In this document: positions 26,813 to 61,045 of the stretch, in pieces
Numbering within the stretch: position 1 is the stretch's first letter
Layout: each line of letters begins with the position of its first letter
Assembly: GCF_036588685.1 (NCBI RefSeq)
Contig: NC_086375.1
Location: forward strand, 58,714,001-58,778,000
Reading direction: 5' to 3'
Length of the DNA stretch: 64,000 bases
DNA from: Mytilus trossulus
Taxonomy: Eukaryota
Notes under the pieces: model-generated
What the model was told of the DNA's origin: nothing
Databases searched by the model: none
What the model saw: the letters and a program-made list of their open reading frames with translations, nothing else
Made by a program: the position numbers and the translations under genes

Positions 26813-26941
26813 TTTATTTCAAGCATATAGCTATTAAAGAAAAGAAGTCTGTGAAAACTATCGATACATTCTCAGCTTAAAATGTCAACCGGAACAGATG
26901 AACCATCTTGTACAGCCATAACGTTGTTTCATTTCCATGTA
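26813..26941 (-). other. Gene A putative non-coding 3' exon (acceptor 26943-26942, AATAAA 26818-26813)
   Basis: Donor AAG|GTATAA 8 nt after the stop; TTTTCTTGTTTACAG acceptor; canonical poly(A) signal. Confidence 0.5.
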
Positions 26942-27210
26942 CTGTAAACAAGAAAATGTGAAGAATGAGAATCATAACAAACTGACAACTTACTTAGTCA
27001 TAAATATAAGAAGATATGATATGAGTGTCAATGAGACAACACTCCATCCAAGTCACAATTTGTAAAAGTATACCATTATTTATTTGGTTTTCTTTTGTCT
27101 TTTTCATCATGATATATTTTTCACTTTTTTCAACCGACGAACTTTTGTAAAGGTCGTTTAAATATCAGTCATAACCTCCTTATACATAAAAGAGACTTAT
27201 ACCTTTAGTT

Positions 27211-27459
27211 CTATTTTCCTCCTCCGCCGCCACCTCCTCCTCCTGATTTTCCGCCACCGCCGCCACCACCTCCTCCAGATTTGCCTCCACCACCGCCGCC
27301 TCCGCCACCACTCCCCCCACCACCGCCTCCGCCGCCACCACCTCCGCCGCCTCCTCCTCCGCCTCCGCTTCGTTTAACAATAAGGCGAGCCTCAGACTGT
27401 TCTATGAGGGTTACAATCAGTAAAGATATTACCAATACAGTACAAAGGGAAGGCTTCAT
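27211..27459 (-). CDS. Secreted poly-glycine peptide precursor (gene A): signal peptide, RLIVKR propeptide, S-G18-(S-G9-K)x3
   Basis: Intact 82-aa ORF with hydrophobic signal ending SEA and a dibasic KR site. Gly codons are mixed (GGA/GGC/GGT), as expected for coding sequence. Acceptor TTGCAG lies 5 nt before ATG; TATA and donor upstream; poly(A) signal downstream. Confidence 0.88.
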   Translation of the reverse strand: MKPSLCTVLVISLLIVTLIEQSEARLIVKRSGGGGGGGGGGGGGGGGGGSGGGGGGGGGKSGGGGGGGGGKSGGGGGGGGGK

Positions 27460-27716
27460 GTTTGCTGCAAGTATCCAATAACAATCAATTTAATGAAAAA
27501 AACAGAGTTGTTAGGAATGCTTTAAACGATATTAGATAACTGTCATTTCAAATGGGAATTCCATAAAACTACATGTATGTTAGTTTAATTCTTTAACGTT
27601 AAGTCATAGGAGCGTTTGTGAAAGAAAGAAAAAATGATATGACGAAAGTATAAATGTTATTCTTTAATTTCGATTTAGTTGTCTAACTAAAACTAAAAGC
27701 ATCAATAATATTATTT

Positions 27717-27774
27717 ACTCACTTGTCGAAAGTTTCATTCCAAGTGTAGATTTGTGATTTCATATCTGCTTATA
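27717..27774 (-). promoter_or_regulatory. Gene A TATA box (TATAAG 27774-27769), non-coding exon 1 and GTGAGT donor (27722-27717)
   Basis: Strong consensus donor about 45 nt downstream of a TATA-like box; same layout as the other four genes. Confidence 0.6.
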
Positions 27775-29126
27775 AGGCTTATTTTGTTGTAGCCTATTAC
27801 GTAAACAATATTTGTGGAAGATAATATATAAATCTTCCGAAAATTCCCATCTTTATTATTGTGAGATTTCCTTGTTAACATAACTTGAAAACCATATGTT
27901 TTGTAAAACCAGCTACAGCTCATTAATCAGTAAAAAAAAAGTAAAAAAAAGTTGGGACAATGACACATCTTATATTTTGTAAATTTCGTACACGATCTTG
28001 TTCTGCCAGCGTATTGAAAAATGCATCTGAGATATAATGATTTGTGACTTCTGGCGTATGTATTTAAAATACGTAAAAGATGTTAAAAACAATAATGCAC
28101 ATACATTGATGCATGAATGAATAGCACTATAATAAAGAACAAAAGCAGCAACTTAAAACACAAAGCAAAATCAGCAAGAATTATAAAAAAAAAAAAAAAA
28201 AAAACAAATAAGAGTAAAAGTATAATATGCACCACTACTATGTTTCAAAGCCGTAACATAAACATAAAAACAAATACTAAACACAGACATTGCAATGACA
28301 AGAGTTGACGTTCCTTCTTATGAGTTTAATATTATTATGCTTGCATTGAATAAAAGATGTTTCACCCTGCAAGCATTGCTGCTTAGATTTGATATCTGAA
28401 AGTCCTCATCATCATTAACATTGTGTATCTCAAGAATTTACAAATATCGCAAACGGATACACTATATGCAAACTTTATTAAATTGAGCCAACAAAAAGTG
28501 CTCAAGCTCAGGTTGTTATGTTTTGTATGAATTGTAAGTCATCTCTTTTATAAATCTCACAAAAAATCACAGATTTTTAAAAACTATATTTTACGAATCA
28601 CTGTCAATTCAAATAGGATGTTTTGTATGTCCTTCTACCCTCTTTGGTAAATGATTTTGTACCGGAGTAAACTGATGTTTGTAGATGTAAATACACTGTA
28701 TAAATATATATTGTATTTGAACCAAATTTTTGTATGTTTTGTAGATCATGGCAGACACAGAGAAAACGCCAAGATGGAGATGCCCGATCTTCATGACCAG
28801 ATTATAATAAGAGGAGTTGGACGGGCATGTAATCTATGGTATGTGTAAAAAAGAGGTCATCCAAGGGAGAATACTTATATAAAGACAACACTAGTATGCT
28901 ACCCATAGTAGAATTGACACAAACGAAGGAGACACACGAAATCCTATCTGAGATTGTTTCTGATAAAAAAGAACAAAGTACACTAAAACCATTTTGTAAA
29001 TATGTTTATTTTAAACATGAATGATTTCAAACAGTGTTGTGGTGGGGAAAGGGGACGAATTTTATAATCTATTGATTTGCGTAATGCATATTTTTCAGTC
29101 AAAATGAACGACATATCTACATATAA

Positions 29127-29567
29127 GAATCATATTCAAAACAGTGTGGTCCTGGCCATTGATTGACGATCTAAATTATCCCATTGACTGGGACAGATTA
29201 GGTGAACGTTTGTCTGTAACGACCATTGCTCACTTCTTACTTATTATAGAATTTAAACTGTGGGGTCACCAAAGGTTCTTAACGCCTCTAATAATATAAG
29301 AATTCGAAAAATTATTCAGGAATAACCTTTATGTTTTGATTTATATTATTGATATAAATCAACACATTGTATTATTCCGGATTCGTTTTTCGAATTGCTT
29401 TATTTAGGTGTTGAGAACCTTTGGTGACCCCACAGATTCAGTGTCTTTAACAAGTACATAGTGAGCAGTGGTTGTTACCGACAAACGTTCACCTAATCAG
29501 TCCCAGTCGATGCGATAATTGAGGTAGTTAATCAATGACCAGGACCACACTGTTTTGAATATGATTC
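29127..29567. mobile_element. Foldback MITE (PIF/Harbinger-like, TAA TSD)
   Basis: Inverted arms of about 165 bp (GAATCATATTCAAAACAGTGTGGTCCTGG...); TAA on both sides. Confidence 0.88.
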
Positions 29568-30015: not shown

Positions 30016-30085
30016 TATAAATTGCCTGCACGTAACAATTCAACTACATGTACTTAGTTTTCTTAACTGATGAATTAAGGTAAGG
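30016..30085 (+). promoter_or_regulatory. Gene B TATAAA (30016-30021), non-coding exon 1 ending 30079, donor GTAAGG
   Basis: Consensus elements, conserved in the duplicated copy at 32488-32564. Confidence 0.65.
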
Positions 30086-30594
30086 ATGATAATAAATCTG
30101 CACATTGCACAAGTTTTTTTAATTCTGTCTTTGGTGATTTCATTTTATTTGTATCAATAGACTCAAATTCCAAATAATTCGAGAAGTTAACAAATATTAT
30201 TCGGTTCTTGTTAGATTTTAAATTTCAGAAAATACGCGAATGTATAATTATTGCCTTTTTTTATTTTCTTTAAAATAAGCGTACAGATCAATATTGCTAT
30301 AAATGTCATTTTTATCTTTGCATTTGTGTAGAAATATAGAAAATTGTAATCCATAAATTTGCCCATCCCGCACGACTGAATCCCATGAAAAATATTTACA
30401 TTCCCATGACGAAATAAAATTATTTGCTAGGATTCTGACGGAAACGAAAATTTCCGACGGAAAACATGTTCTAATCATCAAAATAAAATCGTTCAAATTA
30501 ATAGAGTGCTAGTACAATGTATCAAAAGCCAAATCATAGTAAAACAAATCAAGTTAAATACATTTCATTTTAATTTTTCTTATAGAGTTTCATT

Positions 30595-30816
30595 ATGAAG
30601 AAACTGATCGTTCTTTTTCTCCTGTTTGCTCTTTTACTGGAAAATACAGAGTCAGTGAGACCTCGTCATCCTCCATGTCATCCTTGGCCTCGTTGTAAAT
30701 CATATCCTAAAGGGAGCAGTGGTGGAGGCGGCGGAGGTGGTGGCGGTGCAGGAGGCGGCGGTGGAGGTGGAGGCGGCGGAGGTGGTGGCGGAGGAGGAGG
30801 AGGTGGAGGACGATAG
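30595..30816 (+). CDS. Secreted peptide precursor (gene B): signal peptide, Pro/Arg/His/Cys head VRPRHPPCHPWPRCKSYPK, then GSS-G9-A-G20-R
   Basis: Intact 73-aa ORF. Signal MKKLIVLFLLFALLLENTES; acceptor TTTTCTTATAG 9 nt before ATG; AATAAA at 30876-30881. Confidence 0.88.
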   Translation: MKKLIVLFLLFALLLENTESVRPRHPPCHPWPRCKSYPKGSSGGGGGGGGGAGGGGGGGGGGGGGGGGGGGGR

Positions 30817-32487: not shown

Positions 32488-32564
32488 TATAAATTGCCTG
32501 TACGTAACAATTCAACTACATGTTACATGTACATAGTTTTCATAACTGGTGAATTAAGGTAAGT
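32488..32564 (+). promoter_or_regulatory. Gene B' TATAAA (32488-32493), non-coding exon 1 ending 32558, donor GTAAGT
   Basis: Homologous to the gene B promoter and exon 1. Confidence 0.62.
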
Positions 32565-33059
32565 TTGATAATAAATCTGTACATGGCACAGGTTTCTTTT
32601 GTCTTTTGTTATTTCATTTTTATTGGTATTTATATACTCAAATTCCAAATGATTCGAGAAGTTTACAAATATAATTTGGTTCTTGTTAGATTTTAAATTT
32701 CAGAAAATACGAAATCAATGTACAATTATTACCGTTTTTTATTTTCTTTGAAAAAAGCGTACAGATCAACACTTAATATCATTTTTATCTTTGTATTTGT
32801 GTAGAACTATAGAAAATTGTAATGGAAATCGCCCATCCTGCACGACTGAATCCCATGAATATTTTTACATTCCCATAAAATTCTTTTCTAGGATTCTGAC
32901 GGAAACGAAAATTTCCTACGGAGACAATGTTCTTATCATCAAAAATAAACTCGTTCAAATTAATATGCTTTTACAATTTACTAACAGCCTAATCATATTT
33001 TTTTTTCATATTTAATACGTTTCATTTTTCAATTATTATTATTTACATATAGTTTCATT

Positions 33060-33188
33060 ATGAAGAAACTGATCGTTCTTTTTCTCCTGTTTGCTGTCTT
33101 ACTGGAAAATACAGAATCAGGTCCTCAACCTCCATGTCACGTTCCTTGTAAATGTGATCCTGTTTTTAAAGGTGGAAATAAAACGTAG
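33060..33188 (+). CDS. Gene B' - 42-aa paralog of gene B lacking poly-Gly: MKKLIVLFLLFAVLLENTES-GPQPPCHVPCKCDPVFKGGNKT
   Basis: Manually translated (below the ORF-track size cutoff). Signal peptide 19/20 identical to gene B; TATA, donor, acceptor and AATAAA retained. Confidence 0.75.
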   Translation: MKKLIVLFLLFAVLLENTESGPQPPCHVPCKCDPVFKGGNKT

Positions 33189-36100: not shown

Positions 36101-36869
36101 AAAATTCAGATATGGAGCCACGAACAAAAAATCCAATATGGCCGCCAAATTCAAGATGGCCGACATTAGTATAACATAATTCACTTGATGAAGTCTTCCA
36201 ATTTTAATGTGTTCAGAAGATGTCACAAACTTAAGGAAATACAATTAAGATATGTCAATTATTATTTTTTTTAAACCTTTTAATACAGAAATGATCAAAA
36301 TGGCGTCCAAATTCAAAATGGCGCGTCAAAATGTCTAAGTTTGACAGTATTCGTATATATACACCATGATTGTGTGATAGAAAGTTACCAAATCCGCGAA
36401 ACTGATCATTTGATATCGACAAAGGCCTACAATGTATCATTAATGCCTTGGTGCATAGATAATATTTTCAAAATGGCGGCAATATTTAAAATGGCGCCAT
36501 TTAACATGTACAAATTTGACGTTTGTTTTTAAATATGGTATACAAATGATTAAAAAATAATGGATAATTTATTTCAATACAAGCACGTATATACAAACAT
36601 ATTATTATTTAATGTAACAGGTGACATTAACTATGAAATAAAAATGGCCGATACAGTTCAAAATGGCGTCTTCGACGAGTTCTTATTTTTCACAGTTACA
36701 GGTAATGACCTTAGAAAATTTCACAATTTTCCTGAAATGAAAAAAAAAACAACATATGCAGTATTGAATCAGTGCAAAGAGTATTTCTTAGAAAAAAAAA
36801 TCACAAGTAACTATTTAACATAACAACAGATTAAAATTATAATTAAAATATGATACAAATGCAGGGAAA

Positions 36870-39248
36870 TCAAAAGAAAGCACAGTCACGATCAGTTTCT
36901 CTTTCACAGTCCGGTGAGCAGTTGCATAATGCTGTGCATTTTAATGCTGCTTTCAAGAATTTACATGCTCCTATACATCCTTTCTTACATCTACAGTGGA
37001 TGAACTCTTGGCATGACATTGAAGCTTTGGCAAGCACAGACCAGAATGGTACCGAAGTACCATCAAGTTTTTGCCAACCAAATAAATCTGGTGATGGCAT
37101 ACTTGAATTTGCAACTAAACAATTGCGCCCAAAAAACACTACCTTGGTAAGCTGCACGTTTCGTATGTTCAATGAAGAAGTGCATCTCATGATGGAGGAA
37201 TATTGTCAATTGTTCTTGTCTTCTGCGTCAATAACTGTTTTCTAAACTCATTCACCATATTAGCTGTACTAGACCGATCATACAAAAGCACAACATATCG
37301 TTCTATTACTTTTAACACTTTTAAAATTTCCACTTCATTTGGATTTTCAAAAACCTGCAGAAATGCTTCTGACAACTCCTCATATACGAACCATGTATCC
37401 CAAGCTTTTCCCAGAAAAAGCTGAGACTGTGTCACAACCGGTAAATGAATGGAACAGTGGAAAGACTTTCAATTCCAATGGTCCTAGAGCAAGGCACAAT
37501 CCATGAATTGAAATATATAGAAAGTTCTTTCCAGTGCCAAAACCTATCCACAGCTGTTCAGCCATTTGAATTCCCCTTTTAATGCAGCTGGGAATGAGGA
37601 CATATCAATTGAAAGTTCTCCTTCAACTAATGGGATATCCGGTTCGATGAATATTAGTACAGCTGGTGGAAGATTTAAATTACTCTCTGGTAAAAGAGAC
37701 ACTCTCTTTGACTGACATTTCAACATAGGTTCAGATTGGTCAAATGTTTGAACAACGCCTTGAACATCCTCTGAAATATGTTGGAATAAAGATATACCTG
37801 TACCATGGAATGAATTTTTTAACGAGATACTGCTTGAATTGTGATCAATGTTTTCTACAGCAGATGAAGTAAATACATTTTGTAGTGGATTGGTAGGGCA
37901 AACAATACCTTCTTTGACAGAACGACGACAAGCATCCTTGGCCATGGAAGTAGAAATTTCTAACACTCGGTCGTAGGAGACAGACAGTCCAAGATTGAAG
38001 AAAGTATCTACTAGATCACGTTTGCTAGTCTTACATGGATCATGATTCCCAAATTAGCACAAAATGGAGGTTCATGATCTTTCATGTGACGGTTGGATAG
38101 TTTCTTTGTACAACTATACATCAGAAGATGTGCTATTGTTAATGTCGACTGAGAATATGAACGATCCTGAATGTTGGGTCCAAATTGAATCATACTGACC
38201 AAAGTAAGCAATGACTGGGGTACATAAGCTTCCTGATATCCCTTTGGGAAGGTTCCTTTAAATTCTGAATTTGATGCGAAAATATCTTTACGAACAAACG
38301 TAGCTGCTTTTGATATGTTGAAAAACTCATTATCAAAGTCTTCTAAGCAGACTCTCTCAATGCAGGACCAATGTCATCTTTGAAAGCAAGGATGTTTTCA
38401 AGACCTTGTTTGTAAGCATCTAAGTTAGGGAAATTACAATTCTGTGTTTTAGTCGTGTACTACTAACTCGAGATGAAACATCTGCACCTAGACATGTTAT
38501 TCTTTCCGTATAAAGTTTACATAGATCTGACAATCTGAAAATGCAATACCATGGATTTGACTTTCCTTCTTAGATTCGACATTACCATTTTTCATTTCAA
38601 TTTGAGATGCACGATTATATAAGGAAACAAAACATTTAGGGTGTTACTTTGCTTCCTTTGCAATTAGATCACCAGCACTTAACTTTGCAAGTAACAACGT
38701 GTCATTTAATTTTACTGCTCATTCTCTCACATGTGTATCCTGTCCAAACGTTGAGGACTCATGAAGGGCTTCTTGGCCATTTTCATTACAGAAAAAGCAC
38801 ACAGACGGGTAACTGGTGGACTGAACGGAGAGGCTATGTCTAGTTTTCTTTTAGATGTGGTTGCTTTGTCATTTATTCTCTCATGTAAGGTTGTTTTTTC
38901 TGCTCTATCCAACTTTGTCCTGTTCAGTTTCAAGTTGCAATATTTGTGCCAACATGCCTTTTGGTCAATGAAATACTGTGCTATTCCGGGTCCCTCATCT
39001 AAATATAAGTTTGCAATGCACACATTAATGCCTTCAGGCATCAATCGTAATTCATGAAACTTCTAAATATTGTCAGCTAAAGATTGATAACCAGCACCAA
39101 CATTGAGACGTTTAGAATCAAATGGGCATATACGTTTTTCATCTATTATTTCTTGGCATAGGATGCAATTTGCCCAATCAATATTATTTAACTTAGTTGG
39201 TTTGTCATATTCTACACTTGATACCCTGAACGTCTTTTCAGTAGCCAT
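36870..39248 (-). pseudogene. Academ transposase relic (N-terminal Cys region, XPG-like FHSFTGCDTVSAF motif, C-terminal Cys8 finger)
   Basis: ORF fragments IDWANCILCQE, ACWHKYC, NIDHNSSS...SFHGTGISLFQH, LWIGFGTGK, FHSFTGCDTVSAF, CRCKKGCIGACK..KAALKCTALCNC. Confidence 0.85.
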
Positions 39249-39494
39249 GTTGTAAGAAATATGATCGTAAATTAGTTTATATATTCCTTGTATATAACTT
39301 CTGTATGCCAGACGCGTGTTTCGTCTACAAATGTCGTATCAGTGACGCTTGAATCGAAAAAGTTAAAAAGACAAACAAAAAGTATTTAATTTAATATTTG
39401 ACGACCTGAAATCCTGAAAGTTTTGCAAAGCACAAATATTTGTTGATTATTAAAAGCTTTCTAGATATACACGATATAGTTTCTGATAATAAGA

Positions 39495-45812: not shown

Positions 45813-48800
45813 CAATTTACAACCGTCACTTGAAATTTTAGTTGTTAAAATTCAAATTATTGCCTCTAATTTTTTCGAAGAAATCGACAAAGTTTACGAA
45901 CATTTACGCAAAAAGAAATATCTACGGTAAAGGTACAAGTATAAATAAAGAAAACAATTCGATATGGAACATTTTATTTGTGCAACAGTTGGCTGTTATA
46001 ATGATAAATGGAGATATGGGATACTAGTATGCAATTTATAAGAAAGCAACATCTGGAGCCAAGGCTCAGTGTTGAAGGCCGTAATTGACCGATAATTGTT
46101 TACTTTTTTAAATTGTTATTTGGCTGGAGATTTGTCTCATTGTCACCACATCTTCCTATATCTACTTAACGACATCAAAACCAAAGAAATCATGCAAATT
46201 GTGACTGGAGCTAATTGATCGAGTATCTTTTGATTTCTAATTTGTAGTTTTAGTAAACGTTGGTTCCCTAGATTGAAAAGTATTTGTAGTATAATTATCA
46301 CACTAAGCATTTCAGTCTCTAGTACATATTTTTTTAAGTCTTAAAACTTTTATCCTTGGGTAGAAAATTCAAACCATAATGGAATAAGGTGGTGCGGTAA
46401 CTATCCACCAAAGACAAAATGAAGGAAATGTTAGTTTGCTATTGCTACTTCATTTTACATCTTCAAATAACTATTCCATTATATGAACTGGATATTCAAA
46501 AATATGTTTAATAGGCACGTATTATCATATTGTGTCACTTGTGTCCGTTCAACCGTCAATCTCGCACTTGGTATATAGGGTGTATACGGCTTATTATTTA
46601 GCACTACAGTCTTTTTGCTTCGGGTTTAAATTGTGTACATGGTGTTACAACTTATATTTAAGCTGCGCATATCTTCTGGATTTTCTCTATTTTTTGTTCA
46701 TGACAGGTTGCTTGATTAGGCATTTTGATAACATATAAAAGGCACGCAGAGTACAGACTCCGGCTTACATCTCCTGCATGTGGAATTTCAAGCTGGAACC
46801 TTTATATTTCGCAGTTTGTTTTACTCTGCATATCTGCATAAGAATGCATATCTGCTCTCAACATTTGTTTTGTAAATAATTTTCCACAAATGACAGACTT
46901 GAATCTTGTGAAATGTTGCGTACAGTTTGTATAATGTTTGTCTAACTTGCTGAGCAACCAACTGACACATTTACATCACGCAGAGTACGCTATACTTATG
47001 TATGTAGCAAATTAAGAATAAAAATTATGATCGAGTTCTGAAATTTCCTTTGAGTTTTGTTATTTTATTTTTTAGAATGTGTATTTGATCTCATAATTTT
47101 CACAACTAACAGAATGTTCAACCTTTTTTTGATTGGTGCATCAAATGTGTCTTTTATAAACAACTGTTGTATCGTCCCGAACATGCATGCACTATTTGCC
47201 ACTGAACGTTAAACAACCATCAAAACCCGAGCAATTATAAAACTGTTTTACACTGGATCAAATTTTTAAAGTACTCTATTTCTGCATGGATGAAGCGATG
47301 ACACCACCATCAGTGTCTTAAAGGATGGAGTTAAAAACTTAGTTATTCACATGAATCACACGTGAAATTTCTTATCTTATTTCCACGTGACCTTTACAAA
47401 AATATAAAAGTATTTTTCATGATTTTAATTAAATTTTAGAATTAAGATATTATTTGAATAATCTTATTTAAAAAAATTACGTGGATTTAACGTGTACCTA
47501 TTTCCGGTGATTAGTTCATGAACTATTAAAATATTCACGTTGAACCAACAAGTTCAAGCAAGTTTCAAGTATATATAAAAAAGATGATGTGGTATGACTG
47601 CAAACGAGACAACACTCCACAAGAGACCTTAATGACACAACAACTATAGGTCATTGCACGGCCTTTAATAATGAGAAAAGCCTATACCGTGCGCATAGTC
47701 AGCCATAAAAGGCCCCGAAATGACAATGCAAAACAAATCAAACGAGAAAACTAACGGCCTTATTTATATAAATCAATGAACGAAAAACAAATGTGTAACA
47801 CATTAACAAAATTGATGACAACCACTGAATTACAACATGCTCGTTTTACGACACCCGACAAGTGAAATGAAAATTAAAAAAAAAACACCATTCAGATTCC
47901 GACACATATTTTGTTTTCGATTTCTCTGAGTAGGAACAACGTTACATTCTGTATTCAATGACGTCACACGTTTTCGGCCAAATTATAAGGGCATCAATGA
48001 ACTTTGAAGCCATTTATCTCAAAAACAAGGATGGTGACATATAAGTTTCTATACTTGTATGGATTCAGAATGCAATCATGGATATTATGTTAGTTTTTTG
48101 TTTTTCTCAGTATATCACAACATAGCCATCCATTGGAAAATCTAAAAAAAGTAAGCCGAAAAATAGGCATTTCCTCTATATACCTAAGTAAATTTGTCGC
48201 CAAAATTGACGTTTTCTTATGAAAATACCAAGAAGACAAAAAAAGTGACCCCCATTTTTTATTACATATTCCGATGTAATTCGATTCAAAGAACACGTGA
48301 CCAAAAAGTTTGGAAATCGGGAGATATGCCATTCGGTATCGTGTTACCTTAAATCAATGGATTGGATAAAAAACATTTCAAAATTGAGTTAAAATTGCTA
48401 TATTTTAACTGATTTTCTGCCTTTTTGAATATTTTTTTATTTAACGGCCGTTGTTGTCTTATTCTGTTGTTTGGTTTCTCGATATATCGCCTTATTGTTC
48501 GCTGGCTTATTGTTCGCTAGCTATTGTTCGCTAGCTTCTGCCTGGTCCTTATTTTACATAGAGGTCAGTTTCGAAAGTGTAATAAACATGATTTTGTTGT
48601 TGTCCATTCGTTTGATGTTTTTTGTCATTTGATTTTGTCATTTTATTTGTAATAGGGATTTTTCGATTGAATTTTCCTCGGAGTTCAGTATTTTTGTAAT
48701 TTTACTTCTTATAACTAATTGACGTGGTGTTTGTCTCATGTTAATACCAGTCCAATTTCGAAGGAAGAAGACAAATATCAGTGGTATGATTTCAATTAGT

Positions 48801-49341
48801 ATTTTGAACATATAAACTAGTAAAAAACCAAAATCATAAGTTTCGGAAGTTTATTTAATGTGATATATATGTTATAAATTTATTAATCATTAGTGTTGTT
48901 CAAACCAAATGTTTGAAATCTACAAAGTAACATCCGAAAAAGTTCGAAAATACATGTAAGGAACACCTGTGAACCATAGGGGAATAACCTTAAGATTTGA
49001 CAAATGATACAATAATGACTCTGCATTCCTTACAGACTTTCGAATCCCCAAATAACTCATATGATACTAGTTTTCTTCATACTGTCTTCTTCTGCCACTC
49101 TCCATAAATTACTACAAATATTAAGTGATGATTTGCATGACATGTCAACATTTCGACATACATTAATATATATATAACAAGCGCTTGTACAAGGTTAAAT
49201 GCAATTTCAGTTTTGACATATGTTGTTTGTAATAGTGCATCGCACTTTAGTGAATTATATGAATCAAAATAACAAACAAAAAGATCAGAAGGACAATTTT
49301 ATTTTTCATAAACGCATCCTCATTTTGGTAAATCAACACTT

Positions 49342-49629
49342 TCACCAACTGCCACCCCATCCTCCGCCACTACCGCCTCCTCCTCCTCCTCCTCCTCCTC
49401 CTCCTCTTCCACCACCACCGCCACTTCCACCACCTCCGCCGCCGCCTCCTTTACTTCCCTTTCCTTTACTCACGATGCAGTGCTTTTTACCATCTACTAC
49501 AGTACAACCAAAACCATTTCCCGAAGCACTAGCACTTCCTGAGTCCTTTTTTCCAGAAACGGAGATCGAAGCGCTATGTACTGTTTCCAGCAACAATACA
49601 AATACTGATACACAATACAAAAACTTCAT
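49342..49629 (-). CDS. Secreted Gly-rich peptide precursor (gene C): signal, Ser/Gly/Lys region, C-x8-C loop, poly-Gly, GWGGSW end
   Basis: 95-aa ORF from the ATG at 49629; the upstream extension in the ORF track is intron polypyrimidine tract. Signal MKFLYCVSVFVLLLETVHS; acceptor TTTTTTCCAG 4 nt before ATG. Confidence 0.87.
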   Translation of the reverse strand: MKFLYCVSVFVLLLETVHSASISVSGKKDSGSASASGNGFGCTVVDGKKHCIVSKGKGSKGGGGGGGGSGGGGGRGGGGGGGGGGGSGGGWGGSW

Positions 49630-50916
49630 TTCTCTGGAAAAAAACGACAAAACATAGTTAAATAATTTTGACTGTCCAAGGGAATTTTATACGTGCTATA
49701 CTTTATGGATACATGTATAATAAATTTGTTATCGGGAGAAATTGCATCTTTGAACGATACCGGTATTATAAAAAGTAAAACCACAAAAATACTGAACTCA
49801 AAGGAAAATCAATTCGGAAAGTCCATAATCACATGGCAAAATCAAATAACAAAACGCATCAAAAACGAAAGGATAAGAACTGTCATATTCCTGACTATGG
49901 TGGATTAAACCTTGTTTTATAGCAATAACCCTCTCACTATAAACGTATACCTGATTGATTGATTGGTTTGTTACGCCACTTTTCGCAGTATTGTGCTATT
50001 TCATGGCAGTCAGTTTTTATTGGCGGAGGGCACGGAGAGAAACGCCAACGTTTGGTAGGAAAACTAACAAATGAATCCTATTCAATCAATATATTTGAGT
50101 CGAGTGCATCTCACACGTGCAGGGTTATGGTTCATACCAGTGTTGACAGGCTAGTGATACAGGAGTTTGACTTCTTATACCACCCGGTCACCATGAGACT
50201 TAACATGAGGTACCCACATACAAAATTTATTCGGAAGCATTAAAACAAAAAGGACCATAAAAATTATAAGGTCAAATTTCTACGATGAATGGCAATCTAT
50301 TGTTTGAGTAAATTCACCAAAATCTTTCAGCACAATATGCTTATCAGTAATGAAAATCTGATATCACCCCCGGTGTTTTGGTGTGGTTCGTGTTGTCTTT
50401 TCGTTTTTATTGGTTTCTGCAATGATTTAATCTGTATTTTTTCGACATATCAGTTGTTAATTGTCCCTTTTGGTATATTTAGTCTCTTAATGTATCAATT
50501 GAAAACTTATTACTGAAAAGCATTCTTTAAATTATGATCGAACTGATCTACTAGTGATGGAACTTATTCGGCAGTGCTACTGATCAAGTGATGATATCGC
50601 TACATAATTTGACAACATTTTCAGGATATCATTTATTGAATAGTTATTACAGTCAGAAGCAACGACAACTGGCAAATCGTTTAAAACAAATTTTAAAAGT
50701 AATTTCCTTTTAACCATTTTTAACAGTTGTTCAATTTATATTTGTATAATTTTTGAATTTCTTAGATCAAATTAAGAAATAAAGAATCTAACAAGAAACT
50801 ATTTACTTGACAATTCAGTATGTTCCTGTTATCCATAATTACATACACAATTTTATTGTTACAAAACATAATTAAAGAAACTGTCATGTGAATATTCACT
50901 ATCAAAAACAGTAAAG

Positions 50917-51005
50917 ATTTACCTGAATGGAGTTTCTTCGGAAAATAAATTGTTTTAACTGAAAAATTACTTAAATAAATTGCTTTTAAAACTATCTAAT
51001 TTATA
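50917..51005 (-). promoter_or_regulatory. Gene C putative TATAAA (51005-51000), exon 1 ending 50923, donor CAG|GTAAAT
   Basis: Same layout as the other genes; implies an intron 1 of about 1.3 kb. Confidence 0.5.
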
Positions 51006-51567
51006 AAACATTATTCATTTTAAATTCTAAGTTCGTGAACTTCCACGTACGTGCGTGTAACTTCTAAAACAATTACTAATTTCACTAATGTAAATACTTG
51101 ACGTGTTTAAAATCCAGAAACTATTGTGCGTTGGTACAGAACACGAAAATAGTTTTCCTTTATTAGTGATACAAATTCCAAAAAGTTCATTGGTCTAAGG
51201 TTAAACTTAAAGGGTACTCAATACTTTTCAACTTCGTACTTTATTTTGCTATTTAGTTTTCCTGTCGAAATGAGAAAAAGTTCCAATAGTTAACTGGTCT
51301 AAGGTTAAACTTAGAAAGTCCTTATTGTTCTTCAACTTAGTACTTCATTTTAAAATTGAACAATTTTTAATTCGCGCATCACTGATGACTTCCCCATTAG
51401 ACCTCACATGGATTTTATTCAGTAAGTACCTGTTTTGATTGCATTTATTTATGTATTCTGGAACACTAGAAAATATATGGTGTTTGTTGTTCGACGTGGT
51501 CAGTACTTTTTGTGTCCGTTAATTGTTGCCAAATAAAAGGAAATGTTGCATTCATCGTATGTGTATA

Positions 51568-52156
51568 TTTCAGCTTTCCAATTGTGAACTTTCCATTTCT
51601 AAGAAGCAACATTCCAGCAGCACCTGCATACGGGGTATATATCTCCCAATTGATACGATATTCCCGTGCATGCATTTCCTATCATGATTTTCTTGATAGA
51701 GGGTTACTGCTCACAAGGAAGCTATTAAACCAAGAGTTCCAAATGGTGAAGTTGAAATCATCCCTTCGTAAATTTTACGGACGCCATCACGAGTTGGTTG
51801 ACCGTTATGGAATAACCGTTTCACAAATGATATCGAATATGTTCCTTACGTCGTAACTACAATCCCCTTCCCTTTCATGAATTTGACCTACCGAATTAGA
51901 CTATTTACCGGATTTGTAATCACATAAGCAACACGACGGGTGCCGCATGTGGAGCAGGATCTGCTTACCCTTCCGGAGCACCTGAGATCACCCCTAGTTT
52001 TTGGTGGGGTTCGTGTTGTTTATTCTTTAGTTTTCTATGTTGTGTCATGTGTACTATTGTTTTTCTGTTCGTCTTTTTCATTTTTAGCCATGGCGCTGTC
52101 AGTTTGTTTTAGATTTATGAGTTTTACTGTCCCTTTGGTATCTTTCGTCCCTCTTC
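51568..52156 (+). mobile_element. Young 5'-truncated Penelope-like element 3' end (RT C-terminus plus tail)
   Basis: Uninterrupted FSFPIVNFPFL..NIPAAPAYGVYISQLIRYSRAC...LKSSLRKFYGRHHELV; tail shared with 22050-22280. Confidence 0.85.
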
Positions 52157-54804
52157 TAAACCCTAACCATTATTCAACATCACAACAAAAGAACAACTGT
52201 AACAATCAGCTGGGAATTGCATGATGTAAACCAACAAAAATAAAAACAATAGACAAAAAGTACAAAATTGAAATACTGGAATGTCAAAGCCAATAACAAC
52301 TTGTGTATAAAATCAGGCTCTACCAGACTACAGTATTAATCAGTACACATCCAACTGATTTACTATAACAATTTACAAACGGTTCGAAAAAAAAGTGTGA
52401 CATAGTGCTATAACGAAATAGGAGTACATTACAACAATAGGTTGTAGGACCATATGATTTCATAACTGTACATCATGACGTTTTAAGTCGTCTTTAAATT
52501 ATCAAAAACAAAATCAAATTGAATATAAGTACCGTTAAAACAATATTCTGTTATCTTTAAGTTACGACGGTGTAAAAATGATGCACTTCAAGAACAGATT
52601 CAGTAAGGGATCAATGAGAGTACATGGATTGAATGCAAATGCAGGTGCTTTATAAACAACATCACTGAAAACATAATATCCTGTTTGTAGCAAGATATAG
52701 AAACGACAATGTCTTCAAACAGAATCTATCAAATAATTTAGTATATTAAGTTTTAAATTAATTTGGTAACGAAATCCACGAAATAATCATTGATGAGTTT
52801 ATAAAACATATATAAATGGTTTACCCCAACTTTAACTGTTATGTATGTTTGTTGTGATCACACATTGTGTCAATATAATGGAATTTTAAGGGACTATCAC
52901 ACAAATGAAATGTTAAATAAGGTACCTGTACAATAAGATTTAATCCACCATTTTCTTCAAACGGAAATTGCTATACCAAACCAAAGTCAGGAATATGACA
53001 GTTGTTTTCCATTTCGTTTGATGTGTTTCAGCTTTTGATATTGCCATAAAAAAAGGAGTTTTGCGTTCGACTGTAATTTTCCTTGGAGTTTGGTATTATT
53101 TTGTATTTGTTGTTGTTGCTTTTTACAACTCCTGGTTCGATGCCAATGGTAGTAAAAGTTTCGTTCTCACCAACCCAGTAATTAGCATTTTTGTATTGAA
53201 ATAAAATATTCTAAATATGACCATTTTCTGTAATTTATTGAATACAAACTATGTTTTTTTTAGATTAAAGACATTGTTTCCTTAGCCCGTAAAAAAATCG
53301 GGTTTTACTGTTCTTCAACTTTGATTTGGTCTTGAACTGTTTACAGATCTTTTTATGTAGACGCAATAAACGTTTGGCGTAACAAAATATATGCTTGGTA
53401 AAAGTGGTGAATTTTTACAACCAGTCGTTCGATGCCATAGCTGGTGTTCGTTTCGTTATAAGAGTATTACCAGCCCTGTAGTCCGCACTTTAAAGTTGAC
53501 ATGAAATATCCTGAAGTTATCGCACTATTAATATGTTTATAGTATAGCCATATATTGCACAACTTTTTTAGAATTCCTTTTTGTAATGCTATCAACTATC
53601 ATGTACTTTTTGATTTGGTCTTCACAATGTTTTGGTTTAAGCGACATTGATGAGTCATACGTAAACGAAATGGCGTCCATGATTCAATTGTACTTTTTTG
53701 TTACCACTTGGTCGATGTCATTGCTGGTGGACGTTTTGTAAACGAGTCCGTCACCACTTATTATTGTTATGTTAGATACTTGTTTCGTTGGCAATTATAC
53801 CACACCTTTTTATCTTATATGAAATATCATTTATGTTCATCGTATGTCTTTAATAATAACATGTCTTCTGATTGTTTTTATTCGTACCGGTCCTACATAT
53901 GTATTTATGTTTGTTTGCTTTTTGGCCTTGAATGTTTGTCCCTAATATTTTATTAACTGTGCATTTGCATTCAGATATCGCAGATCAAATTTATTTGTTC
54001 ATAGTGTATTAATTTACGTTTTTTGATTGAGTTACGCCTGCCAATTGATATTTTATCGTGTATTTTTTTATGTTGTGATTTTATGTTATTGTTTCAGAAA
54101 AAAGGAGAAGGTTTGGTACCATCAAATCGTTTAATCCCGCTGCAAATGTTTGCACTTGTCCTAAGTCAGGAATCTGATGTACAGTAGTTGTCGTTTGTTT
54201 ATAGATTAGACCGTTGGTTTTCCCGTTTGAATGTTCTTACACTAGTTATTTTGGGGCCCTTTATAGCTTGTTGTTCGGTGTGAGCCAAGGCTCCTTGTTG
54301 AAGGCACATATTTCTACTTAGTTCTTAATACATAGATGGTGAAAGAAGAAGTAATTATTTTTCTTAAGGCGAAGTGTACGTAATTAAACTTCACAATGGA
54401 TTTTTTTTAAATTTCACATACGAATTCTGCTTGTAAAATTACACCAGAAAATGAAATAAAAAAAGGGGGTAACCGTTTTCGTTTTTGAGATACGAGCCGT
54501 TGAAATTAACTACAAGATACACCAAAATAACAAAGGATATATAGGGAAAATCATCAAAATTAGCAGGTATTTTTACATCATCAAGATTTTCTATTTTGTT
54601 GGACAATGGATTTTTTTCTAAAACTGATATACGATTTAAAAATGAAAGACGAATCCATCGGTGCAAAGAAAGTCCTTAGCAACCGTATTAGTTTTTACGC
54701 TACTCTCTGTTGAAGTTTAGTTTTTGGCTGGAACATTGAAATTATCTGGCGACGTCATTGTCTGCAGTAACGTCGCCACAACTTCTACGTCGAAACTCTA
54801 TTAA

Positions 54805-55077
54805 GGTGGTACCCAACACTTTCACTAAAATTAATTTGGCTCGTTTAATTTTCATAAAATTTTGTCAAAGTATTTACTTTGACCCTTTAACTAAAATGTA
54901 AAAATTTGAAAAAAATTTGAACCAACCGTTTATCAGAAAAATTACACTGGTTATATAGCAGTTTGACAAACATCAATTTTGATCATTGAGAAGCTTAATA
55001 TTCCTTCTACAACACAACGTAATTAAAACGTTTAGCTGACTTTACAGAGTTATCTCCCTGTAGTGTTAGGTACCACC
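54805..55077. mobile_element. Nested Kolobok-like MITE (TTAA TSD)
   Basis: TTAA|GGTGGTACCCAACACT ... AGTGTTAGGTACCACC|TTAA. Confidence 0.88.
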
Positions 55078-55782
55078 TTAAACCGTACAATGCCGTAGCA
55101 ATGGCGTTCGTGTGTATTACCCATCTTCCTATGTATTACAAATGATCTTACGCTATAATTTGATAAGGAACTAAACTAACTAATTTTAAAGAATATTTCT
55201 GTCGCAAAAGAAAATGCAAGTTTGTAAATTAATTTACCGCAAATCAAAAAAAATTGCCGTAGACTCTAATTTCATCTTTTCTATATTAGAGTGATTTCCG
55301 AACCTTTTTCAATGCTGGCATGGATTGTTTAATTCTTTTATGAATCAAATATCGAGTTTGAATTCGTCCCGGTTAACACAGTGTTGTCAGAAAGAATTGA
55401 TCGGCTTTAATACTAAGATCGGGTATACACCTCGTTTTCAATCTTTAAGTTACTTCTGTATGTTTGTATTTAAAAAAGTAGACCTATTGTCTGCATATTT
55501 TCATGTTCGTCATTTCTGCATGTTGTTAATCTGAAGATTTGCACACAATATAGTCTACATCATAAACCTATTTCACTAGTCATGTTTACACACATGCTAA
55601 AGACGCATCTCTGCCAAAACATATTTTATTTTACAAAATTCCCAATCTCTATTACTTTCCCTTTTCTTTAACTAAATGACAAAGAATGATGTAATGATTG
55701 CTGAATGAAGTTTCAGTAACATAAGAAAATATTTGTTTGTTCCATGCATTATTTGTTAAAAATCCACATTAAAGGATTTAAA

Positions 55783-56232
55783 TTGATTGATTGATTGTTG
55801 GTTGCTTAACGTCCAGTGGCAAATATGTCATGCATGTTCAGGATGAGAACGAGTTAATAATAAAAACAATAGGAAGTTTTGTTCATAACAGAGGCCATCC
55901 GGGATGATGGTCTGGGAAATTTGGAGTGCCACTAGAAAATGAGAGTACATGTATATTGGATAGGGACAGAAATTTTGCCGCGTGCAACAGTCAACATATT
56001 CAACCCTTAAATTATAGTTGTTGTAATGGTTTTTAACGGGCATAGAGTGTGGCACTCTCTTTACACGAGTCATCGGAATAGCGTTCCCATTCTGACCGGA
56101 CGTGACTGCGAGCTTAATAAATCATGCACAGCCAAACGGACCCTCCTCTTCGGAAAATGTTTTACTGCCGGTCGGGAGAAGACCAAGCGACCACATTTCG
56201 TTTCCCCAGTCACCTTTGGGGTAACACGGATT
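55783..56232 (-). mobile_element. SINE (bivalve Meta-domain-like) nested in the Kolobok-like element
   Basis: Homologous to 45437-45812; (CAAT)n tail. Confidence 0.65.
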
Positions 56233-59200
56233 TAAACAATAAACACAATGCATACTATGGTACTTCAACTTCTTAAGTTCTTATACATCCGTGGCTTTAA
56301 AATGTTCTGCCTTTAGTGTCCCTTATCTAGGTTAATCCAGAAAAGCGCTTCATTTCATTTTATCTTCAGAATTTTTTAGACCGCAATGAGGTTAAAAAGA
56401 AGGACTCGCTTATACATACATTTAAAAAAAAAAAATAGAAAAGATCGGAGTATTTGGTATAACCACCAGTCGCAGATATTTCATACATGTATATTCAAAA
56501 TGAAAACCTTACACCTTATGTGATTCTTTTGAGATCGACGTACCTAGTCAGTGCAATAACGACCGTAACATACCCATGCAGTGTTATGAAATAAAATTTG
56601 TGTAGGGTAATGAATTAAATAGCGATGAATATAGAGTAACGCTTTAAATTAACTGGTGTAAAATTAATTATATAAGAATGCGACCTTATGAGAATTATCA
56701 TGTTCGATGCTTTAAAAATTTACCTAATAAAATGTTACAAGAATGTACTCAGTGTAATGCACGGAGATTATTCATACTGTATTGCTACACGGGTTTACCT
56801 AGCAAAGTGCCGTACGAATATAGCTTCTGCATAATGCAAATGCACGGCTTTCCTATTTATTTCATATAAAACAACAAGGAGATGTGGTATGACATCCAAT
56901 GAGTCAACTACCCGCCACTGGTTAAATGAAGTCGATGTAAGCAATAACTATAAACAACCAAACTCTTTTCAACAATTAAAGGGACAAAAACATAATGTGT
57001 AGGCCACAAAAACCCCGATATGAAAAATGCAAAAAATTTCCAACGAGAAAATCAACAGCCTTATTCATGAAAAAAATAGTTACGAAAAACAAATACCATA
57101 TTGTGAAGTAAAAGACTTGAACCAAAGTGAGTAACAACCAGCAAACTATAAGTCCAATAATACAAATCTTTGGAGTTTGAAATGATTTATATTCAACGAT
57201 TTTTATCGGATACATTTTTTTTGGGGGGGGGGTCAATGTTGATAATAAGAAAAGTAATATCCTATAAATTGTTTTTGAATGTAAATGATATGAAACTCCA
57301 AATTCTTACATTATTGGACAAGTAATTGGCAGATCCTTACGGGAGTTGGACCCCCTTCTTTGGGCCGATCAATGCATTTGAATGGGGACATATAGTTGGA
57401 ATCCCCCCTTTGTCCTGGGTTGGGGACCCCTTTTTTTAATGGCTGGATCCGCCCCTACTAGTACACCACGGGCTTCTCAATTCTTGTATTATGATCTATT
57501 ATCATGAACTAAGTGAAAGCATAGAGGTGACTGAGTGCGAGATCTTCCTGGATAATCATTGAGGTCGTTTATATGCATTCCTTGCAGTAGACTTCCGTTA
57601 AATTTTAAAAAAAATCTTTAAAATGCTATCGAAATGTATAAAAAGTCTGAACTTATTTCACCTCTCATTCCACTAAACATTAAATTACAGTTACAAGTGC
57701 CACAAAACTTTCCTGGCCTCTTTTAACCGTAATGATATTTTTCTACTCATTCATTATCTTGAATTGAGACCTATTAGGAAAAACACGTTACTCAGTCAAA
57801 ATTACATTTTGTTCTCTAATTTGAAATGATGCACACAGGCACAATAAAAAAAAATAATTTTGCTATCTCTTCGAAATTGGAATTTAAAAAAGAAGAAATG
57901 ACGTGTGATATTTTTTATCATACATGAATCTTGTGTATTTGTAATTTCAATTTCAATTTGGTTCTAAATTTAGATTTAGATTTTTAATAAATTTCGGACG
58001 GAATAGAAGACACCTGTTTATTTTCTGCACATGTATGACATGTATAAAAAGTTGAAAACTGGAAGTTGAATGACATAGTTTTTACTTATTCTAAGATAAA
58101 TGTTTAGAGTGATCACTTTTTAGTTTACTATGAGTATATTTTTGGGGCCTAATTTGTTAACTTTCGTCTTTGTTCTTTCGACTTGTAAGTGTTGCCCTAG
58201 ACTAGTCGTCAAATTTTATTCTCTTGGTATCGTCTTATTTTCTAAATTGATATAAAACATGTCCTAAAATTTTCATTAGCACAAAATACGAACATGTCAA
58301 CGTTTTTTCAATCTAATAAATAATTTCATATGTCATTCATTAATTGTTCGGTAACCCGCTAAAACTTTAAGTTGAGTACTGTGTGTTTTTGTTCAAAACT
58401 TACGGCTTTTAAAACGATATTGTTGGGTCAATTCAGGTTTAATTTTAATAATTAAATAATTAATAATAGAAGTAGAATCGTCACATGTTTATTTATTTAT
58501 AATTCTGTTGTGAGGCGATTTTACAATCTGTTGATATAAGTTTTTACACGAAATGGCTTTCATGTCCCATGCGTCTGAAACAAAATAAATCAACTAGTAT
58601 TAAAGTCAGGCTGCACGAAACAATAGAATGCTTTGATTTCTAAATGGAGTATTTCAGATAATTTCTCATGATTAGGTTTTTTAAGACAGCACGGGCGTGC
58701 TTTTTGGATTTGTGATAGACCGCACGAAGTATTTTCTCTTTCGTGTGTCCTTTCTTGGAGTAAGGGAGATAACTTGCGTAACTAACGTCGAACGTTATTA
58801 ATCCCGTATTCCGCTAGGGGCGTGCAATTACGTACACTTCGCCTTAAGTTGAAATTCTAAAGTAACATAAACGAACATATTATTGTTGAGGATTTTTTTT
58901 GAAGAAAGTATCAATGCAGCTTACGATATTTTTCAAAGTAAATTGTCAATAACTAATTAATATGGTATGATTTGCAAAACAATACGGAATTGTTTATTTT
59001 GTCTATGGGAACAACAACTGTAATGATGTAGAACAGGTGCCACAGCACTCTTTGGTCTTTGAATGTGGCATACGCGTTACTCTGAGGACTCTCAGACCTG
59101 TACTTTGTGTCTCTTTTATACTTTTATCGGTTTCTTTTTATCTGATTTTTATAGTTTGTTCGTAATTGTACTTTTACACCACTGACCGAGGTAGGGCAGA

Positions 59201-59914
59201 GGGTTTGGCGCCACCCAACATGCTCAACCCCGGACTCAACTTTCTATATGTCCTTGTCCCATAGTCAAGAACGTGTAGTTCAGTATTGATCGTTTGTTGT
59301 TGTATATCATTTTTTCGTTCTTTGTTTTGTAGACAAATCAAGCCGTTAGTTTTCTCGTTTGAATTGTTTTACATTTGTGCTGGGACTTAGTTAGTATAGA
59401 AAGTCCCTGATTTCTGATTTCTAAGCCTTTTTATAGCTTTCATATTGTGATGTATGTGATTTGCTCATTGTTGAAAATCTTAGGTGACCAATAGTTATTT
59501 TCTATGTTATTTAGATTTTGGTGGACAGTTGTCTTAGCTGCAATCATATCAGATCTTTGATGTTCATAAGTGTTGAAGAACATTTTAAAAATAAATTAGA
59601 AAAAAATGTGAAGCATAAAAACAAAACTTATATCATGTATAACTATTTTAAGATTAATTTTCATTAGCATTACTTCTTCAGCGGTAAAGAAAGCATTGTT
59701 TTAATGCAAAATAATTTACTAGTAACTATTTGTTATTGTAATGTGGTAGAATGATTGCAGATGCATTTGTCATGTTTTGATGTCATTCAATATTCCAGAT
59801 ATAATTATAAAAACAAATATGAAATTTTATAATTTTAGTGGAAACAACATACGATGTGCATTAATACATGCAGTGCGGATGCAACAATTGAACAAATAAT
59901 TGTTTTTTAAATAT

Positions 59915-59993
59915 TTTATTTTTAAATTCTGATGTGTCGTTCTGGTTCATATTTCCATATTTTTATAACCGTCTAGTTTGAGCACCTATAGTT
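59915..59993 (-). other. Gene D putative non-coding 3' exon (acceptor 59995-59994, AATAAA 59920-59915)
   Basis: Donor G|GTAGGT 5 nt after the stop; TTTCTTTTTCAG acceptor; poly(A) signal. Confidence 0.5.
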
Positions 59994-60461
59994 CTGAAAA
60001 AGAAATTTTAACCTCATTTAAAATATCTTCAAGACATGATTGAAGTGGAAAATTTAATACAGATATATACATGTATCTAGAAGTTATCAACGCATACAAG
60101 TTCAACATAATGTCCAGGTTAGGTAATGACTTGATTTTAAAAAATTTCTATAAGTAAATAAAATTGAAATAGGGAACGTGTCAAAGAGACATCACAACTA
60201 CCAAAGAACAGAAAACAGCCAAAGTCCAAAAAGGGTTTTTAACATCCGAGAAAATCATGCACCCGGAAGCAGGCTTCATCTAGCCACTAAGAAAACATGC
60301 GTACTAGTTCAATTAAAATGGACGTCCTACTGTACCACGTATGTCACCAATGAATGCCATTAAAATCTTTGGCTTTTAAACACATTCATTTATACGTTTT
60401 TGAACAAAGAGTTTAATATTTCAAACAAAAAATAGATATATTTAAAACACACCTACCCTTT

Positions 60462-60695
60462 TTAACAACCTCTTCCTCCTCTCCCTCCTGTGCCTCCTTG
60501 ACCTCCAGGGGTACCAGGTTCTCCCGGACATCCTCCTCCAAAGTCCCATCCAGGTTCTCCAGGTCGCCCGGGTTCACCAGGTCTTCCAGGTTCACCGGGT
60601 TGTCCAGGACCACCACCCCTTCCACCTTCTCTCCATTGTCCATTTATACAACATAAAACTATCACAAAAACGCTAATAAATACAAGGCACTTCAT
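60462..60695 (-). CDS. Secreted collagen-like / Gly-X-Y micro-protein precursor (gene D)
   Basis: Intact 77-aa ORF. Signal MKCLVFISVFVIVLCCING; mature region starts with Gln; G-X-P then G-G-X triplets; two Cys. Acceptor TTTTCTTTCAG 3 nt before ATG. Confidence 0.87.
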   Translation of the reverse strand: MKCLVFISVFVIVLCCINGQWREGGRGGGPGQPGEPGRPGEPGRPGEPGWDFGGGCPGEPGTPGGQGGTGGRGGRGC

Positions 60696-60985
60696 TTTCT
60701 GAAAGAAAATAGCAAACGAGATTAAATAAAATCAATTCCCAAAAATAAGAATTGAATCCAGATTTTGAGTGCGCAGATTTTATCCTCCAAACAGTTTTGC
60801 TATAAAAAGTTTGCAAAATAGATTAAAACCTACGTCTTTAAAGATTTTTAACCTCAACTTTAAAGTCACTAAATTAAGTAAATCTTCAAGGTAAAGTATG
60901 CTTGTATAACATTTTCACATAAATTAAAAGACAAAACACATTTTTACATTTAATTGAAATCCATTAACTTGTTATTCAAAAATGA

Positions 60986-61045
60986 GCTTACGTGGTTCTC
61001 TGTTTGTTCTTTGTTATTATATGTATTGTGTATGAATATTATATA
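60986..61045 (-). promoter_or_regulatory. Gene D TATATAA (61045-61039), exon 1 ending 60992, donor GTAAGC
   Basis: Consensus donor about 50 nt downstream of TATA. Confidence 0.58.

Follow-up and report, generated by a model that had tools for sequence, protein, structure and literature searches.

Among the closest described counterparts of the genes analyzed here, which lie in a 64-kb stretch of Mytilus trossulus DNA (the window; C3:58714001-58778000, on contig C3), are the myticalins and modiocalins, linear cationic antimicrobial peptides of Mytilus and Modiolus that are small, secreted, restricted to mussels and encoded by clustered tandem genes (PMC5577615, PMC12294457). The myticalin genes contain a non-coding exon 1 and an intron right before the ATG, and their products have predicted CPE/PAM amidation (PMC5577615). 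The MgCRP-I are short secreted Mytilus-specific peptides of unknown function with six invariant Cys, four exons, a conserved pre-pro region and signs of positive selection (PMC4558851). According to reviews, acanthoscurrin, ctenidin, hyastatin and GRPSp from arthropods are cationic Gly-rich antimicrobial peptides (AMPs) or mosaics of Gly with Pro/Arg and Cys. The shematrins and KRMPs are Gly/Tyr-rich shell matrix proteins of pearl oysters, the KRMPs weighing about 10 kDa and carrying a basic head that contains Trp (PMC3896809). A 2025 paper states that neither mussels nor other bivalves are known to have glycine-rich peptides (PMC12294457).

A cluster of five small genes (A, B, B', C and D) was identified in the window. 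Genome searches (1.30 Gb) with A, B, C, D and E together with a scan for open reading frames (ORFs) over 864 kb around the window placed them in a set of 12 genes of five types (A-E), located in two blocks about 300 kb apart on contig C3. All cluster genes have a single coding exon. Judged by sequence comparison, the set is a cluster of five separate small families and not one hypervariable family. These families are apparently undescribed and of a familiar kind, Gly-rich secreted peptides being known across animals. Window genes A, B, C and D are also named A1, B1, C1 and D1; "contig C1" is a separate contig and not gene C1.

Comparison with described peptide families

The cluster shares with the myticalins and modiocalins the small size, predicted secretion, restriction to mussels and clustered tandem arrangement, and with the myticalins the non-coding exon 1 and the intron right before the ATG. 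The amidation-type ends also resemble those for which CPE/PAM amidation is predicted in myticalins. A second intron that closes the main coding exon is likewise common to both, but in the cluster genes that have it, it lies after the stop codon. A dibasic site with an anionic C-terminal extension was absent from 12/12 genes, no phase-1 intron was found within the coding sequence, and the mature parts were Gly-rich and conserved while the signals differed by type. Unlike MgCRP-I, the cluster peptides contain 0-3 Cys, are encoded by a single exon and displayed neither a conserved pre-pro region nor positive selection.

The likeness to arthropod Gly-rich AMPs (acanthoscurrin, ctenidins, GRPSp, Spgly-AMP and hyastatin) is one of composition only and includes predicted secretion, cationic charge, very high Gly content and, by prediction here, amidation. 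Like B, hyastatin is built of Gly-rich, Pro/Arg-rich and Cys modules, but in B the order differs, with a Pro/Arg/Cys head followed by the Gly tail. No sequence homology with these AMPs was found for B, C and D with short low-complexity queries, A has no hydrophobic residues after its KR site, and D and C2 are not cationic. The signal, Gly-rich body and basic ends are common to the shematrins/KRMPs, whereas the cluster peptides are smaller, hold 0-1 Tyr and gave no Gly/Tyr-rich domain when tested for one. By the sequence features tested, the cluster belongs to none of myticalins, MgCRP-I, shematrins/KRMPs, collagens and plant glycine-rich proteins (GRPs).

Organization of the genes in the window

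All five ORFs were found where the first-pass annotation had placed them, each with ATG AAG located 3-9 nt past an AG acceptor and with a hydrophobic N-terminus. Four ORFs of the window had a hydrophobic start and at least 30% Gly, compared with none in 100/100 hexamer-block shuffles of the window, indicating that they did not arise by chance. The five ORFs are real genes, and their layout is present in the sequence. Signal peptides were called by hydropathy and by eye rather than by SignalP, and all predictions of export have that basis. The features are as follows (UTR, untranslated region).

27774-27769, minus strand: predicted TATAAG of gene A, with non-coding exon 1 at about 27744-27723 and intron 27722-27465; promoter and donor are kept in A2
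27459-27211, minus strand: coding sequence of gene A, 82 amino acids, ATG AAG 5 nt past the AG acceptor; predicted signal of 24 residues, short head ending in a KR site, near-pure Gly chain with few K/S, end GK
27202-26942, minus strand: 3'-UTR intron of gene A, followed by exon 3 and AATAAA at 26818-26813, predicted from sequence only
30016-30022, plus strand: predicted TATAAAT of gene B, with exon 1 to 30079 and intron 30080-30585; TATA and donor are kept in B' and B2
30595-30816, plus strand: coding sequence of gene B, 73 amino acids, ATG AAG 9 nt past the AG acceptor; predicted signal, Pro/Arg/His head with two Cys, 20-Gly run, end GR, net charge +6
32488-32494, plus strand: predicted TATAAAT of gene B', with exon 1 to 32558 and intron 32559-33052
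33060-33188, plus strand: coding sequence of gene B', 42 amino acids, three Cys, ATG AAG 7 nt past the AG acceptor
50960-50923 (approximate), minus strand: non-coding exon 1 of gene C, with intron 50922-49634; donor kept in C2, acceptor and exon position backed by X1 and X3 contigs
49629-49342, minus strand: coding sequence of gene C, 95 amino acids, ATG AAG 4 nt past the AG acceptor; predicted signal, Ser/Gly/Ala linker, predicted beta-hairpin (residues 40-53) with Cys42 and Cys51, Gly/Ser tail ending in Trp
61047-61039, minus strand: TATA-like run of gene D, with exon 1 at about 61017-60992 and intron 60991-60699; acceptor backed by X3 record 32
60695-60462, minus strand: coding sequence of gene D, 77 amino acids, ATG AAG 3 nt past the AG acceptor; predicted signal, about seven G-X-P triplets, W-D-F turn, two Cys, end GGRGGRGC, net charge 0
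60456-59994, minus strand: 3'-UTR intron of gene D, followed by exon 3 and AATAAA at 59920-59915; one X3 contig
C3:58383997 and C3:58411737, minus strand, second block: type E genes (L103, L104), Gly/Arg-rich, end GRRK

The mature part of A is 78% Gly with a net charge of +6, and an alternative AATAAA is located within its predicted 3'-UTR intron. Gene B' is a young tandem copy of B in which a 100-nt deletion took out the Gly tract and the old stop codon. Its reading frame extends three codons into the former 3' UTR and its head carries in-frame indels, while promoter and splice sites are intact. Gene C has a net charge of +6, whereas its paralogue C2 has -1.

A second block on the same contig

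The genes of the window block are arranged as A(-) B(+) B'(+) C(-) D(-). The second block (C3:58.373-58.444 Mb) displayed the mirror order, D2(+) E2(-) D3(-) E1(-) C2(+) B2(-) A2(+). The 864 kb contain 11 Gly-rich ORFs that begin with a hydrophobic stretch, and every one of them falls within these two blocks. Type E comprises two Gly/Arg-rich genes of 52-58 amino acids ending in GRRK, and no copy of it is present in the window block. E1 is preceded by a 241-bp tandem duplication of its own 5' end, and E2 starts at a shifted Met.

A 100-N gap is located between the blocks at C3:58544714, and their relative inversion therefore depends on scaffolding. Between paralogues, 27-63% of the synonymous sites in signal and head differed, and C1 and C2 have separate relatives in Logan, indicating that the blocks are old paralogues and not haplotypes. 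Among the matches listed, no long collinear match was found between the blocks except for the genes, repeats and one 2-kb stretch adjoining C. This stretch (window 45800-48400), just downstream of C, matches over about 2 kb at 74-86% and in inverted orientation the stretch downstream of C2 (C3:58426000-58428350); it is a repeat present at both sites or else a leftover of the block duplication.

Conservation of signal and mature regions

The first-pass annotation had described one family with conserved signals and hypervariable mature regions. Signal comparison gave a mean score of 59 within types (n=9), 17 across types (n=57, max 36; pairs not independent) and 12 against a small control set of five unlinked secreted proteins (n=60, max 32). 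An unlinked family on contig C1, described below, scored about 20 and thus above the cross-type mean. Signals of different types are therefore little more alike than those of unrelated secreted proteins, contrary to the earlier expectation. The mature parts were better conserved than the signals in C (83% vs 47%) and D (76-78% vs 41-50%), and about equally conserved in A (71 vs 62), B (48 vs 50) and E (69 vs 65). Cross-type DNA comparison revealed no similarity beyond two short repeat or Gly matches. Because signals are homologous within types and hardly across them, and because mature parts are better conserved in C and D, the types are regarded as five separate families on sequence grounds. 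The hypervariable model agrees only with the young pair B/B' (signal 95%, head 53%) and with no other comparison. The signal motifs noted earlier do exist in the five window genes, but the paralogues B2, C2 and D2/D3 lack LLENTES, LLETVHS and SVFV.

Two observations weigh against this separation. Some cross-type signal pairs were nominally significant (C1-D1, p=0.001; B-E, p=0.003-0.005; of 57 pairs), and on average cross-type scores lie above those of the controls. Very old common descent of the five types may be reflected in these values. What stands of the earlier description is a set of real, lineage-restricted genes with predicted secretion, for which no named relative was found, and not a single family.

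The Gly tracts use mixed GGA/GGC/GGT codons, indicating that the poly-Gly is not a microsatellite or simple repeat. Pooled pN/pS (nonsynonymous to synonymous differences) between paralogues was 0.60 in the signal and 0.44 in the head; in the tail it was 0.11, a value inflated by the arbitrary alignment of poly-Gly. Values below 1 show that selection acts on the protein.

Splicing and promoters

Logan contigs of four coded runs, three of them guessed to be RNA, were compared with window 48500-61500 (the C and D region). A run search had listed 24 rows, 5 of them with a share above 0.2 and none with a holder registered as RNA; the runs bear no tissue label. For C, the match of X1 record 1 ends precisely at the acceptor (49633), beyond which 21 letters are unlike the window, and X3 record 25 does the same with 34 such letters. 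The depth x length of these extra letters matches the depth of bin 50670-51103 (0.213 vs 0.21; 0.83-0.85 vs 0.83), which contains the predicted C exon 1; the joint of exons 1 and 2 itself was not among the matches listed. For D, X3 record 32 matches from the acceptor (60698) on, its 16 letters upstream of that point being unlike the window, and X3 record 31 continues unspliced into the intron. One X3 contig (depth 141, short side 20 nt, another organism code) joins 59994 to 60460 across the D 3'-UTR intron. The spliced transcripts predicted earlier are thus supported for C and D by contigs from runs guessed to be RNA.

A shared TATA and exon 1 layout had also been proposed. Promoter-side sequence and exon-1 donors were conserved among paralogues in types A, B, C and D. 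The TATA box was clearly conserved between blocks for A and B only; that of C is uncertain and that of D1 is not kept in D2/D3. A donor-like site 2-9 nt past the stop codon was found in A1, A2, B2, D1-D3, E1 and E2, and in none of B1, B', C1 and C2. An intron just 3' of the stop is indicated by contigs for D and by sequence alone for A, B2 and E.

Homologue and literature searches

The only protein relatives obtained were two unnamed Logan proteins of type C, P0001 (93% to C1) and P0002 (55/60 to C2). A C profile run over 1.84 billion representatives returned these two and one tick repeat protein, which matched the signal region only and was rejected. None of 78 candidates was accepted for D, and no candidate was obtained for B. 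The ESM Atlas gave no usable match for C or B, its recognition being low. No named relative was found for B, C or D with these short low-complexity queries, which are weak; A and E were searched outside the genome by exact look-up only. Exact look-up found 0/16 proteins and also missed a control protein of this genome (L168), so this result is uninformative.

Literature searches, including six peptide motifs, found no description; supplements and some relevant works lay outside the search, and a prior listing is possible. A 2015 review by Gerdol and Venier is said to mention putative mussel glycine-rich peptides, in which case some types may be in print. Two candidates were rejected: a gill "glycine-rich secreted protein" of Mytilisepta, whose primers we read as collagen-like and which could not be tied to the cluster, and a digestive-gland "glycine-rich protein", for which the text consulted gives no sequence to compare.

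Composition and predicted structure

Among the 11 Gly-rich genes, 7 encode peptides with a net charge of +5 to +7 (A1, A2, B1, B2, C1, E1 and E2) and are thus predicted to be secreted, Gly-rich and cationic, whereas C2 and D1-D3 are not cationic. Type A is about 80% Gly, and type B has a Pro/Arg head with two Cys, about 20-30 Gly and an end in GR or GKK. A C-terminal Gly followed by 1-3 Lys/Arg was found in 6/6 intact A, B and E genes, and the KR site is kept in A1 and A2. Each of the 12 mature peptides contains 0-1 Tyr and 0-3 Cys.

For the C head AlphaFold predicted a hairpin and nothing more (predicted local distance difference test, pLDDT, 64.5), and this model had no match in the PDB at E<=0.001. 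For D (pLDDT 52.9) no structure was predicted, which neither backs nor judges a polyproline bundle. No Pfam family scored above cut-off for A, B, B', C, D or E1; the GRP family (PF07172) gave C 19.5 bits, below its cut-off of 30 bits, and did not match A, B, B', D or E1. Assignment of D to collagen was rejected, because about seven triplets are followed by a break and no Pfam match exists, and so was its PDB match 8zxl, driven by the G-X-P repeat. A genome search with D gave 27 matches, 3 of which were D genes; of 12 further loci examined, 11 were collagen-type exons and one, L017, was of unclear type.

Other poly-Gly genes in the genome

A poly-Gly pattern searched over the genome gave 942 overlapping matches and 147 run starts, 100/147 of which were listed. 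These include a tandem array of 13 genes on contig C1 (74776812-74926300; L135-L154), with relatives L105 (contig C1:42.434 Mb) and L164 (C5:25.04 Mb). The predicted proteins (89-179 amino acids, net charge +2 to +22) consist of a signal (75% mean identity), poly-Gly, a short hydrophobic spacer and cationic Gly/Arg/Lys-Phe/Trp repeats. Their genes have an intron before the ATG and a donor about 35 nt past the stop, lacking in one array member. It is this family, and not that of the window, which by its sequences fits the conserved-signal model, and it is a strong separate candidate for Gly-rich AMPs. A single-exon gene (L171:896-1156; C6:54.555 Mb) encodes an 87-residue peptide, predicted to be secreted, with poly-Gly, a hydrophobic spacer and a Gly/Lys/Arg tail; its outline is like that of the contig-C1 family and its signal is different. 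Among 20 other poly-Gly loci sampled, several encoded Gly/Tyr multi-exon or shell-type proteins and two had no readable ORF. Due to such loci, a structural reading of the cluster stays strong.

Putative function

The peptides may be secreted surface (mucosal) defence peptides, a reading to which we assign a probability of roughly 45%. After removal of the signal, A would undergo a second cleavage behind its KR site. Types A, B and E would lose their C-terminal Lys/Arg, and their final Gly would become an amide, as predicted for myticalins. The resulting cationic flexible products (3.4-6.4 kDa) could attach to anionic microbial surfaces. The active ends would be the Pro/Arg/Cys head in B and the hairpin with its Lys in C, while poly-Gly would act as a flexible tether. 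The same gene order in both blocks suggests joint regulation of the linked genes. Defence is favoured because of the cationic charge, the KR site, the Gly and Lys/Arg ends, the little Tyr and the myticalin-like layout. The low Tyr content contrasts with the Gly/Tyr proteins of the same genome and with shematrins/KRMPs.

Several points argue against a defence function. D1-D3 are neutral or acidic and C2 has a charge of -1; the neutral D fits least and might instead assist the others or have a structural part. Beyond the KR site, mature A lacks hydrophobic residues, so it cannot be amphipathic. An end of the amidation type could simply arise wherever a Gly-rich chain has a basic tail, and poly-Gly is common in this genome in structural-looking proteins. 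Hypervariability and positive selection mark the defence families of mussels (PMC5577615, PMC4558851), whereas the mature parts here are conserved.

Close behind defence comes a serious alternative, that the peptides help to build a secreted film or matrix such as mucus, periostracum, a byssal coat or the envelope of larvae or eggs. Poly-Gly and G-X-P would then form flexible or polyproline-II chains, with terminal Lys and Cys as cross-link handles. The B outline, a basic Trp/Cys head and a Gly tail, is similar to that of KRMPs (PMC3896809), and D resembles collagen-type triplets. Poly-Gly runs of the same genome occur in Gly/Tyr multi-exon proteins, an MSI60-like Ala/Gly protein and a tyrosinase-like protein (named by reading, not by search). 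The genes of the vertebrate epidermal differentiation complex have a two-exon layout similar to that of the cluster. Unrelated genes kept in fixed order under purifying selection would suit a kit of parts, and the neutral D and C2, the lack of amphipathy in A and the conservation instead of diversification point the same way. However, the peptides are very small, have almost no Tyr as a precursor of 3,4-dihydroxyphenylalanine and no acidic domain, and matched no collagen or shell family in Pfam, and their KR site and Gly plus Lys/Arg ends resemble bioactive-peptide processing.

Returning to defence, a wider and more tentative proposal is that mussels hold a co-regulated kit of five unrelated Gly-rich AMP types (pure poly-Gly, Pro/Arg/Cys-headed, hairpin-headed, G-X-P and Gly/Arg), duplicated as a block, in addition to the separate set of at least 15 poly-Gly genes. 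Such genes would have been overlooked because they are small and of low complexity. If antimicrobial, they would be the first glycine-rich AMPs of bivalves, and as short synthesizable candidates they make this gap testable. If structural, they would be new components of mussel secretion. Either way they form a linked set of unrelated micro-genes which, with the larger poly-Gly family, had no named protein record that we found.

It is unlikely that the five types are functionally unrelated and stand together since the region breeds small secreted genes, some of them signals, reproductive secretions or stress proteins. The springtail antifreeze proteins, which form an ice-binding polyproline-II bundle, are a suggested parallel for D. 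No cross-type homology was shown, net charge spans -1 to +7, and the window block lacks E while the other block holds D and E in duplicate; against this, Gly richness, size and layout are common to all types and the A-B-C-D order is kept in both blocks. Finally, that the second block is an assembly artefact (the other haplotype) or the ORFs are non-coding repeats is highly improbable and largely refuted, since the only point in favour, the 100-N gap, is opposed by the synonymous differences, the separate relatives of C1 (P0001) and C2 (P0002), the few collinear stretches listed, the mixed Gly codons and the spliced contigs.

Other features of the region and genome

In the window, runs of broken ORFs resembling transposon remnants, without a Pfam match, are located on the minus strand at 15100-17400 and 36800-39300. 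Of the long GC-richer ORFs flanking the cluster, 34/67 were scanned; matches were mostly transposon domains and gave no functional clue. An exon of 110 amino acids with hydrophobic segments (L027:9007-9336; C3:58.363 Mb), without a confident Pfam match, lies 10 kb from D2. Between the blocks, an ORF with a Neuralized domain (PF07177) was found at L044:5615-6283 (C3:58.53 Mb). Two near-identical 436-residue integrase-core ORFs (PF24764; L042:5962-7269 and L043:7168-8475), inverted and about 14 kb apart, lie near the assembly gap.

Elsewhere in the genome, tandem multi-exon genes for Gly/Tyr/Leu-rich proteins with predicted secretion (L155-L161; C5:5.17-5.39 Mb) have a composition which, in our reading, suits periostracum or shell matrix. 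Long poly-Gly inserts were present in a vWA-like protein, also predicted to be secreted (L168; contig C1:70.93 Mb), and a tyrosinase-like protein (L170; C7:40.06 Mb), the domains being assigned by reading and not by search. The genome is that of a mytilid mussel, as eight myticin-family matches above the Pfam cut-off were detected in it.

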